From: a virus
Lineage: Duplodnaviria; Heunggongvirae; Uroviricota; Caudoviricetes
Strand: one strand, 5' to 3'
DNA length: 51,671 nucleotides
Virus record (IMG/VR): IMGVR_UViG_2718218104_000010
Shown here: positions 42,001 through 45,000 of the stretch, one piece after another
Position numbering within the stretch: the first letter of the stretch is position 1
How the letters are laid out: each line of letters starts with the position of its first letter
Program-made: the position numbers

Positions 42001-45000
42001 GCGGAATTTCGGTATCCGGTTCAGAAATATGATTCACACAACGCTGGTTGTTCGTGCCGCTTACCGGGAGCAACCAGGGGTTTTCAAAATTCCGGTCCGG
42101 CCCAAAAAACGTCGTCGCTCGCTGAACAAATTCCGTTCCCGCTTTCCCGGTCGCCGCCAGGTATCTCGCGTAACGCCTCACACCATCCAGCATGGTCTCT
42201 GGTGGCACCCCCTCGCGCAATCTGGCCTTCCAGGCACTGAAAGCGGATTTCTTCGGGTTTGCCCCAGCACGCAACGGGTATTCCCGCCAGACCTGTTCGA
42301 ACACATCCGGATAATCCACTCGTCCCACAGACTGCCCGGTGCTTTCCGGGACTACCCGATCGGCTTCCCGCTGAATGGCGGAATCGGCTTCAGGCTGCTG
42401 CAGTTGGTGTGATTGCTCCGACCCTGCGGTCATCACCTGCTGCACAGCGCCCGAATCGGCTTCCGGTGTCGTGCCTGCTGGCTGACCAGGATTGACGGTC
42501 TGAACATCCCCTGCCTGGTTCGTGGTGTTTTTTTTGCCATGAACCATAGTGTTTTTGTCCTGTTCCTGTTCTTTCTCCTGCTCCTGTTCCTGTTCTTGGC
42601 TTCGAAGCCCCTTAAAAGCCCCTTCGAAGCCCCTTACCGAATTTCGGCTATTATTCCGCCTCACATCCAGATGGAAATCCGTTTTATATCTGTCGTAAAA
42701 CACTGACAGAAAAGCGTTTTCAGGTAATGATGCATACTCATTCCTGACACCTGCACAACGGTTATCGCCAGGCTTCAACGTTTCCCCAACCTGCCAGGCT
42801 GCCATTTCATGGACCCAGACCATCTCTGCATCATGGTCATAGCTACAAAAACCAGCTTCAACAGCCCTTTTAAGCCCCTTTGAAGCCCCTTCCAGACCAA
42901 GCCCGGTTTCATGAGCAAGGTATAAAACTGGCAGGTAATACAAACCCAGCATATTTGCGTGAGGGGATGTCATCAGGTAAAAAGCAACAACTTGCGCTTC
43001 TGCACCCGCCTTTCTAAGTTCTCTCCCCGTTTCTCCCAGCCAGAATCGCGGAGAAACTTTTGCGTAATCACGCATGGCTACCTCATCTGGTGCCGAACCT
43101 TCCTCCGGATATAATCTGTGGTTCCCAATCGACAGAACCAGAGGAGGTTCGACATGTATTTTTTGAAAAGCCTTTATCAGGCTCATGTATTAAATGTTGC
43201 AGCAACAAACCGCTGGTGTAACAGCCCCGAAATGCTCCCGGATTACAGAGCCTGGCTGCGCGCCGAAACATACCTTCGTCTCGACATATTGATTAGCGAA
43301 CTTCAAAAAGAGACTGCATCCATTCATAACCTTCAGGGTATCGACGCTGTTCGCATTCTGGTATCGCGCCATAGTGCTCTCTCAATAATTGAAGTGCGTC
43401 ATCTCTCTTTTTCTGAACTGATTTTCTTGCTTCAACCAGCTCTGGAATCAGCGAATATCCCGCCGGAAGTGATCCAATACCCACCTCATGTTGACGAGCA
43501 GTTACAAGATGTGCCATACAACCAGCGTGCTGGATTGACTCCCTGCTCAGAGGCTGAATGGGATCACTCTCTGCTGAAGAAATACCAAGATTTGTATAAT
43601 CCTCAATAAGCCCGGCACACGCTTCTGCATCAGCCAGCTTTATTCTGGTTTCCTTGCGCTGTTCTCTGGCTGACAAACGCCAGAGCAGCGCATTAGCTTT
43701 ATGTATCAACCACTCTGCCAGCTCCACATCAGATAAACCGCCACGCCAGATGTGCGGACTGTTTTCGTAAACGCTCAGTGTCAATTTTTTGTCATTACTC
43801 ATATTTATTACCCAATTAATGCACAGCCAGAGTGTTTCCTGCCGGGCCACCACGATTCATCTGATCGAACAGAACGATCGCTGATGCAACGAAATCATCA
43901 ATATCTTTCACCAGCCGTTCCTTCGTCTCTACCAACTCCCGAAAATAAGCGGAACTGTGGCTGCGCATTCGGGCCACCAGCGGAGGCGGCATCGCTTTTT
44001 CGATCGCTGGTAACAACGCCTGAATTTTTTTAACCGCATCAGGAGTGTCTTTCTCCACCCAGCGGAAAATTTTCTGAGTATTGCGAGCCATGGCTTCCGG
44101 ATGGCTGTCGTCATACAGTTCCGGGAACGTCATTCCCAGCTCGAAATACGCTTTGGTAATTTTCGCAGCCGGTACTTTTTCGCCGTCCGGATGCGCCCAG
44201 GCATTCATCGCCATGCGGATGTGTTCATGCTTGATTTTCATGAATCAACTCCGGCGCATTTGATGTGTTAACCTTACATCCAACAGGTAAACCGTCGGTT
44301 GGGTTAGGATAAATATCTGGGCGGATTTCATGCGGGGTAACTTCCCACTTCATTAGTTGGCATAACGGAATTACCTGCTTTGGGGGAACGCCAAAGCTAA
44401 ACCATTGCCAAACAGTCTGTTGAGCGACCCCCATATAACGACCTATTTCAGCCTGAGTGTATTTCTGCCTAATTTTTTCGCGAGTGCTATCTAGCATTTT
44501 GCCCTCCTCTAAAAACTATAAGCAAAGCCTACAATAAAAAACTGTATGCAATCAACAGTTTTTTATTGTGATGCTTTTAACAGTATTTACCTGTAAAATT
44601 GAATAATGATGAGCGCCCTAGAAGTATCTATGTACAGAATCAGCAAGCTTCTTCAGGAAACTGGATGGAGCCAGGCTGAGCTTGCCCGTAGAATTGGTGT
44701 GACACAACAAACTGTTCAACAATGGGTCAGCGGTAAGGCTACACCTAAAGCCTCAAGTTTGGATAAACTGGTTGAGGTTTCAGGGCATCCATTGCATTGG
44801 TTTTTATTGCCTCCTGAAGAGTGTGAGCAAATTTTCACCCCTGACACGATGAAAATTGGTCCTCGCCAACGCGAACTGCTCCAAGCTTTTAGTGCGTTTC
44901 CTGAGGAAGACCAAGAAAAAATGCTTCAAGAAATCAAAGACAAGAAAAAATCAATGGAAGAAACCATTGCTAGGTGGCTGGCGGCACAAAAAAGCCGCCG

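Follow-up and report, generated by a model that had tools for sequence, protein, structure and literature searches.

Lactococcal phages, such as TP901-1, carry replication origins inside their replisome-organizer genes, and comparable arrangements have been described in other phages. In phage lambda, the origin lies in the region of the initiator gene that joins the N- and C-domains; the N-domain binds the repeats, and the C-domain pairs with the helicase loader (PMC5043065). The gp38 organizer of SPP1 binds direct repeats inside its own gene (oriL) and acts together with a loader and a helicase of the DnaB type (PMC6316719). The iterons of plasmid initiators such as RepA, pi and TrfA measure 17–22 bp and lie outside the rep gene, beside DnaA boxes and an A+T-rich region (PMC5043065). 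Here, we analysed the 51,671-bp viral stretch IMGVR_UViG_2718218104_000010 (IMG/VR; Caudoviricetes), hereafter the window, in which two short arrays of 9-bp repeats lie inside the gene of a predicted replication initiator. Judging from sequence comparison, the arrays are probably iterons bound by the protein of this same gene and, together with the spacer of about 230 bp and lower guanine–cytosine (GC) content between them, probably form the origin of a prophage replication module. Such an element is of a known kind, the iteron origin in a phage initiator gene, and this member appears to be undescribed: searches of the literature for the motif, for iterons of DnaC-type prophages and in the Eru papers returned no description of these repeats and no published account of initiator binding or origin activity for this family.

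The window contains exactly five copies of the plus-strand word AAGCCCCTT (coding strand: AAGGGGCTT), at 42605–42613, 42616–42624, 42627–42635, 42872–42880 and 42883–42891, and all of them fall inside 287 bp. By chance, 0.54 copies would be expected, and a count of five was not seen in any of 100 shuffles. One-mismatch variants elsewhere occur at chance level (13 against 12.7 expected), and 8 of these 13 lie outside the gene. The core follows the quasi-palindromic pattern AAG-SSS-CTT, in which a strand flip alters the central three bases only. The copies form array A, proximal to a glutamine- and glutamate-rich linker, and array B, 256 bp away from start to start, with a spacing of exactly 11 bp within each. 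The three cores originally reported at this spacing in array A were borne out by the exact motif positions. The second set, reported at 42862–42891, was recovered as two exact copies; its third member is only a degenerate one, CAGCCCTTT at 42862–42870, which matches at 7 of 9 positions. Both sets lie inside the initiator coding sequence, as claimed, and array A touches the linker tract. On the coding strand, array B reads GAAGGGGCTTC AAAGGGGCTTA AAAGGGCTGTT and encodes EGASKGLKRA, within predicted helix alpha-3 of a winged helix. The surrounding 8 kb (38.5–46.5 kb), where the replication and immunity genes lie, contain no further arrays with an 11-bp period.

Compared with lambda O and its origin, the locus shares the in-gene repeats, the division into N- and C-domain and the position in an early rightward operon. 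However, in the lambda origin O dimers bind four inverted repeats of 19 bp each, set contiguously, and a 40-bp A+T-rich region follows, whereas here 9-bp cores recur every 11 bp, in direct orientation in the window, in two separated arrays without a clear A+T-rich block. Furthermore, one array lies within the coding sequence of the DNA-binding domain itself, the partner is DnaC-like instead of P, and in sequence the protein is unrelated to lambda O (no Pfam match). The in-gene repeats recall SPP1 gp38, and the protein has a fold-level similarity to proteins named replisome organizers; in SPP1, however, the repeats are joined by an explicit A+T-rich unwinding element, oriR provides a second origin elsewhere in the genome, the hosts are Firmicutes, and the PF09681 family is unmatched here. 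The similarity to plasmid initiators is at the level of the fold and is generic to winged helices. The gene order of initiator, DnaC-like ATPase and DUF1627 is that of the Eru4 phages (Shigella phage 75/02 Stx and POCJ13), with an overall nucleotide identity of 79% and an amino-acid identity of about 80% in the N-domain; unlike these, the window is Sp4 of O157, a prophage without Shiga toxin (Stx), and array A is inverted in 75/02 Stx. The features that appear distinctive are a 9-bp core at 11-bp phase, a split into arrays about 230–260 bp apart and the coding of a putative recognition helix by one of them.

To examine how the repeats evolve, about 1000 homologues of the N-terminal 170 residues of the initiator were collected, and 80 genomic loci were taken from one-genome-per-species contigs. 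The 81 homologous loci compared have a GC content of 36–69% and N-domains 51–82% identical to that of the window. They come from Enterobacterales, Acinetobacter, Xanthomonadales, Burkholderiales and other groups, with hosts including Citrobacter, Raoultella, Proteus, Acinetobacter, Stenotrophomonas, Cupriavidus, Caballeronia, Janthinobacterium and Comamonas. Sites with at most one mismatch were present at gene nucleotides 150–215 and 400–530 in 76 of the 81 loci. At these two positions there were 20.6 sites per kb, about 96-fold more than the 0.21 per kb of the flanking DNA (359 kb), and neighbouring sites were 11 bp apart in 154 of 172 pairs. As 11 is not a multiple of three, successive copies fall in different reading frames, and the copies of array A are consequently read as R-G-F, E-G-A and K-G-L.

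The codons within the cores of array B are held to particular synonyms: E62 is GAA in 69 of 69 loci, G63 is GGG in 75 of 76, A64 is GCT in 62 of 78, K66 is AAG in 71 of 71, G67 is GGG in 66 of 76 and L68 is CTT in 70 of 80. Normalised synonymous entropy ranges from 0 to 0.43 at these six codons, against a median of 0.86 at 67 other conserved codons (Mann-Whitney p=4e-5), and the S65 codon, which stands between the cores, varies freely (H=1.74 bits). The next-lowest values belong to four codons. Two of them, G60 and E73, flank the cores and carry the 11-bp phase further (GAAG...); E73, lowest of all outside the cores, is GAA in 64 of 66 loci. The other two are S159, which is AGC in 75 of 75 loci despite six serine codons, and Q160, which is CAA in 64 of 75.

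The two arrays differ in how freely they change strand. An equivalent of array A is found in 79 of 81 loci, inverted in 55, direct in 12 (window included) and mixed in 12, while array B, found in 77 of 81, is nearly always in one orientation (140 forward against 5 reverse sites). The AlphaFold2 model of the protein accounts for this difference: array A codes for a segment with a predicted local distance difference test (pLDDT) score below 50, which can tolerate either peptide, and array B codes for a helix of a folded domain. An inverted array A encodes EAPSKPL, as opposed to EGASKGL (EGAFKGL in the window, where the array is direct), and the DNA word is kept. Shigella phage 75/02 Stx, 21% diverged in DNA from the window, has array A inverted and array B base-for-base identical. 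The repeats are therefore a DNA-level element, selected beyond coding constraint.

The adjoining QEQEQEQEKEQEQ linker is conserved as protein, and its synonymous sites vary freely between GAA and GAG and between CAG and CAA. A role for it as a sequence-specific DNA element was rejected on this ground; its conservation is at the protein level or, at most, that of a purine-rich strand. The SQEQEQEQEQ columns are invariant or at least 90% conserved in nearly all aligned proteins, at an overall identity of just about 40%, which is unusual for a low-confidence segment (pLDDT of about 45–55); the wobble changes are all between A and G, which keeps that strand rich in purines as well.

Repeats of a different wording accompany N-domains of a different type. 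A distant subfamily, represented by Klebsiella phage ST13-OXA48phi12.4 (N-domain 31–37% identical; a DnaC gene follows), carries AAAGGGTT at an 11-bp period in both arrays, which are 232 bp apart and directly ahead of an NQEQDQEQ linker (locus L086, 1676–1694 and 1908–1926). This word is conserved amid varying flanks in 80 viral contigs (L089–L168) whose proteins are 70–99% identical to that of ST13-OXA48phi12.4, and some of these contigs have a third, inverted copy (AACCCTT). The word of this Klebsiella-type sister subfamily can be written AAAGGGTT(Y), and its two base changes from AAGGGGCTT correspond to the helix changes G63R, A64V and L68F. In phage Tritos and its relatives, E. coli initiators of the Phage_rep_org_N type, the C-domain is about 92% identical in DNA to the window up to the linker (41986–42555), but the N-domain is unrelated, AAGGGGCTT is absent and no DnaC-like gene follows the Tritos initiator. 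Tritos nonetheless has the same succession of array, about 260 bp, array and periodic acidic linker, with GTCACG as the core at a 10–11-bp period (locus L002, 3135–3181 and 3403–3441) and a TDKDTDKDTD linker beside the second array. The 92% match stops exactly at the linker (about 42555/42556), which places the mosaic joint between N- and C-domain at the linker beside array A.

AAGGGGCTT, AAAGGGTT and GTCACG are thus found in three N-domain types, each in both arrays, and the two-array layout is common to all three. The motif follows divergence or swap of the N-domain, and the repeats therefore belong to the N-domain and change with it, as in the modular exchange of lambdoid phages, in which the iterons stay with the N-domain and the partner stays with the C-domain. 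The fold by itself does not require such repeats, because a homologue in ICE R997 (20% identity; locus L087, 1386–2255), next to the cI-like LexA-family repressor of this SXT/R391-type element, has neither arrays nor a QEQ linker and serves as a natural negative control. With at least three helix-phased sites in an open reading frame (ORF), selection at the DNA level and co-variation of the repeats with the DNA-binding domain, the locus has three of the properties of an in-gene iteron origin. The idea that the repeats are recombination linkers for module exchange was rejected, since the arrays differ between N-domain types and cannot be a shared substrate. In one metagenomic gammaproteobacterial contig (L078), there are apparently two tandem N-domain genes, each with its own array pair (nucleotides 184–450 and 1281–1536).

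The conserved N-domain (residues 1–145) is predicted to be a winged helix. An AlphaFold2 model based on a 60-sequence alignment has a pLDDT above 90 for residues 10–140, with helices (H) and strands (E) in the order H25–36, E45–47, H49–57, H61–73, E77–80 and E85–88, followed by more helices. This is the alpha1-beta-alpha2-alpha3-beta-beta topology of winged helices, and the model has structural matches to solved members of the class. Its structural neighbours in BFVD bear the names 'replisome organizer' and 'Phage replisome organiser N-terminal domain' (E 5e-5 to 0.2). When the 400-residue translation, which contains the full 363 residues of the initiator, was searched against Pfam-A, it matched zero families at E<=0.01, and homology to the Lambda O family (Phage_rep_O), the replisome-organizer N-domain (PF09681) and DnaD was accordingly rejected. 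PHROG 1701 ('DnaD-like helicase loader') was matched at E=1.3e-148, with residues 38–400 of the long ORF aligned to profile positions 1–323 of 323; 'DnaD-like' is the library's label, and no DnaD Pfam domain is matched by the initiator.

The C-domain is exchangeable, and the gene downstream varies alongside it, encoding a DnaC-like protein, a DnaB-like helicase, a lambda-P-like protein or a primase-helicase. In the window, the protein ends in 24 residues, GTNNQRCVNHISEPDTEIPPGFRG, that resemble the C-terminus of E. coli DnaT. A phmmer search matched this tail to PDB chains 6aep, 2ru8 and 9zbt at E 0.02–0.07, and the PDB sequence search gave no initiator match besides the DnaT-like tail. Against the DnaT equivalog PRK02854 (NCBIfam), the score was 17.7 bits for a cutoff of 201, and the last 24 residues alone align. 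The tail may be a docking element for the helicase-loading machinery, a role suggested by this resemblance. The order of the initiator and DnaC-like genes mirrors the dnaT-dnaC operon (PMC13377028), and the DnaT structural study does not itself establish a function for the DnaT C-terminal tail (PMC13377028). The DnaT-like ending (..ISEPDTEIPPGFRG) explains the 'primosomal protein I' labels found on relatives of the initiator.

Taken together, selection at the DNA level, co-variation with the N-domain and the modular pairing of C-domain and partner support the original prediction of origin-like iterons in an initiator gene, comparable to the lambda origin. In the mechanism we propose, transcription of the early rightward operon would supply the initiator, whose N-terminal winged helix would bind the 9-bp cores AAGGGGCTT, which their 11-bp spacing places on one face of the DNA helix. 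Proteins on both arrays, 256 bp apart, could then join in a higher-order complex, putting nearby DNA under stress until it opens, and the exchangeable C-domain, here with its DnaT-like tail, would recruit the phage DnaC-like loader together with host DnaB.

A further, tentative reading concerns array B, which may be self-referential: the same 30 or so nucleotides (42862–42891) might be both a site for the initiator and the code for its putative recognition helix alpha-3 (LEGASKGLKRAVE). This possibility, which we hold to be somewhat less than even, depends on alpha-3 contacting DNA and on the initiator binding these sites. The two-base difference between subfamilies, from AAGGGGCTT to AAAGGGTTT, also amounts to G63R, A64V and L68F in that helix. 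If the reading is true, a mutation in the core would simultaneously be a mutation in the reading head, specificity and target would co-evolve through identical nucleotides, and array A, in a disordered segment, would be free to follow and to flip.

Moderate signals make the spacer a tentative candidate for the region where the DNA would open. GC content is 37–40% at 42650–42739, the least stable 40-mer of the gene by nearest-neighbour stability (42674–42714) lies at the 95th percentile of the window, and across 72 loci the spacer is 3–9 GC points under the locus mean. Several observations weigh against an origin at this position or against the proposed role of the protein. A winged helix can also mediate oligomerisation, as in the DnaD N-domain, and the Foldseek matches of the model to solved structures are individually weak (E>0.1). 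No clear A+T-rich unwinding element was found by GC profile, cross-locus GC average or nearest-neighbour stability, and the GC dip of the spacer could stem from amino-acid composition. Extra copies just upstream of the start codon in some loci fit autoregulation as well as an origin. In the Sakai strain, the identical prophage Sp4 was amplified just passively, by regional replication from the adjacent Sp5 (PMC2669165); a possible reason is that the Sp4 repressor has no peptidase domain, on which SOS induction depends (PMC2669165). In Eru4 (phage 75/02 Stx), the closest module described, the first gene, directly upstream of cI and a possible homologue of the initiator, is given only as coding for a protein of 'unknown function', and repeats, an origin, iterons and helicase loaders go unmentioned (PMC8951638). 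Plasmid records gave no support either way for autonomous replication: there were ten matches, the six strong ones (H65–H70) are in large plasmid or chromosome-sized records, and no plasmid among the matches employs the initiator protein for its replication. The 32-kb Klebsiella 'plasmid' turned out to be a linear fragment carrying a prophage.

The alternative that fares best is that the initiator binds the arrays for regulation, whether by autorepression, by a transcriptional roadblock in the early operon, by setting copy number or by titration leading to incompatibility, and that the true origin is elsewhere. We consider this unlikely, even though the arrays have no strong adjoining unwinding element, a less stable 40-mer lies upstream (43157–43197), and about a dozen loci, mostly from Acinetobacter, have extra copies at −50 to −10 with the last overlapping the Shine-Dalgarno sequence, a classic autoregulatory position. 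However, such upstream copies are missing from the window and from most loci, the 8-kb replication and immunity region has no other iteron-like array, and the same two-array layout recurs in three different N-domain types. In characterised systems, moreover, in-gene repeats are the origin, and the regulatory and origin roles are not mutually exclusive. In the Acinetobacter-type loci (L010, L016, L028, L030, L035, L039 and L059), one to three extra iteron-like copies precede the start, and the last, AAGGAGCTT, which overlaps the Shine-Dalgarno sequence, may be an autoregulatory operator.

It is considerably less probable that a factor other than the initiator binds the arrays, whether a host protein or a phage early product such as the DUF1627 or ECs1072-family protein. 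Initiator binding is reasoned from comparison, and the arrays sit among densely packed early genes; against this, the 81 loci have widely differing neighbouring genes and come from hosts in several proteobacterial orders, and the motif follows the N-domain alone and takes another form once that domain has diverged or been exchanged. Furthermore, the motif is unlike the DnaA box, the consensus of which is TTATCCACA.

An effect on messenger RNA (mRNA), for instance through RNA structure or through ribosomes pausing at AAGGGG, a Shine-Dalgarno-like word, and so tuning how the protein folds during translation, is highly improbable. AAGGGG does resemble a Shine-Dalgarno sequence, and Acinetobacter loci use an iteron-like word as the actual one. 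However, most loci have array A in the opposite orientation, so that the mRNA contains AAGCCCCTT, which is not Shine-Dalgarno-like; the words of the sister subfamily and of the Tritos type also depart from such a reading, and a strict 11-bp period suits the helical repeat of DNA and not translation. Finally, although EGASKGL is strongly conserved as protein in the structured helix of array B, the view that the repeats are a by-product of a needed amino-acid motif without DNA function, which the original prediction had named as the explanation that would overturn it, is scarcely credible, given copies read in different frames, an unrelated EAPSKPL after the flip of array A in a disordered segment, third-codon positions fixed in the cores alone, even over the full range of host GC content, a freely varying base between the cores and the co-variation of the motif.

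The analysis provides a testable candidate origin and initiator word for a module represented in about 1000 protein clusters of Gamma- and Betaproteobacteria, among them Sp4 of O157 and the Stx1 phages of the Eru4 type from Shigella and E. coli, in which the replication genes at present go by 'unknown function' or 'DNA-binding protein'. The type of replication module is reported to be associated with the stability of the lysogen and with Stx output (PMC8044961), and knowledge of the origin would therefore permit direct experiments on Eru4-type phages. The locus is also a clean natural case of dual coding, in which strand flips, frame shifts and frozen synonymous sites part DNA-level from protein-level selection, and it may offer an example of a DNA-binding helix encoded by its own target site.

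In E. coli O157:H7 Sakai, prophage Sp4 carries an identical copy of the initiator gene (363 residues; 0 mismatches in 1092 positions), namely ECs_1073, annotated as 'phage replication protein'; the RefSeq product name of the initiator is 'DNA-binding protein'. The start of the initiator gene, the ATG at 43075 (MRDYAKV...), was set by the RefSeq annotation of the identical copy and by the PHROG profile alignment, both of which favour it over the start at 43186 of a 400-residue ORF, a mechanical over-extension that was rejected. The N-terminal half and upstream flank (42540–43200) have matches at 90% identity or more in 477 of 5426 complete E. coli genomes. The DnaC-like gene begins 6 bp past the initiator stop codon and is followed by the DUF1627 gene; upstream of the initiator are a YdaT-family gene in the cII position, a transcriptional regulator in the cro position and a divergent helix-turn-helix repressor. 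By this gene order, the region is the replication module in the early operon of a lambdoid prophage. The coordinates of the features are collected in Table 1.

Table 1. Features of the candidate origin and its genes, in window coordinates.
Feature	Position	Strand	Description
Replication-initiator gene	41984–43075	−	Residues 1–145, predicted winged helix; 147–158, disordered, with array A; QEQ linker; exchangeable C-domain
DnaC-like helicase-loader gene	41231–41977	−	NCBIfam PRK12377, E=1.6e-153; DnaC equivalog, 3e-89; Pfam IstB_IS21; PHROG 50
C-terminal 24 residues	41987–42058	−	Resemble the E. coli DnaT C-terminus
Linker tract	42554–42597	−	(GAACAG)n coding for the linker; (CTGTTC)n on the plus strand; abuts array A
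Phased half-site past array A	42593–42604		Coding strand CGA AGC CAA GAA, holding AAGCC; one 11-bp step beyond
Array A (linker-proximal)	42605–42635		Three exact cores, 11-bp period; three frames, peptide RGFEGAFKGL
Inter-array spacer	42636–42861		Lower GC; tentative candidate for the DNA-unwinding region
Phased GAAGC half-site extending array B	42855–42859		Coding strand; codon E73 and first two bases of A74
Array B	42862–42891		Two exact cores (42872–42880, 42883–42891) and a degenerate copy (42862–42870)

Additional features were observed around the module. An antisense gene for an 'ECs1072 family phage-associated protein' (43154–43609, plus strand) lies within the early operon, between the YdaT/cII-like gene and the initiator, and its start overlaps the least stable 40-mer of the region (43157–43197). 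In the immunity region, a relB-relE/parE toxin-antitoxin pair (45034–45512, plus strand) adjoins the cI-like repressor gene (44606–45007). Within the first 36 nucleotides of the minus-strand DUF1627 coding sequence, which starts at 41209, there is a perfect 9-bp tandem duplication (two copies of TTTCAGTGC, 41174–41191).

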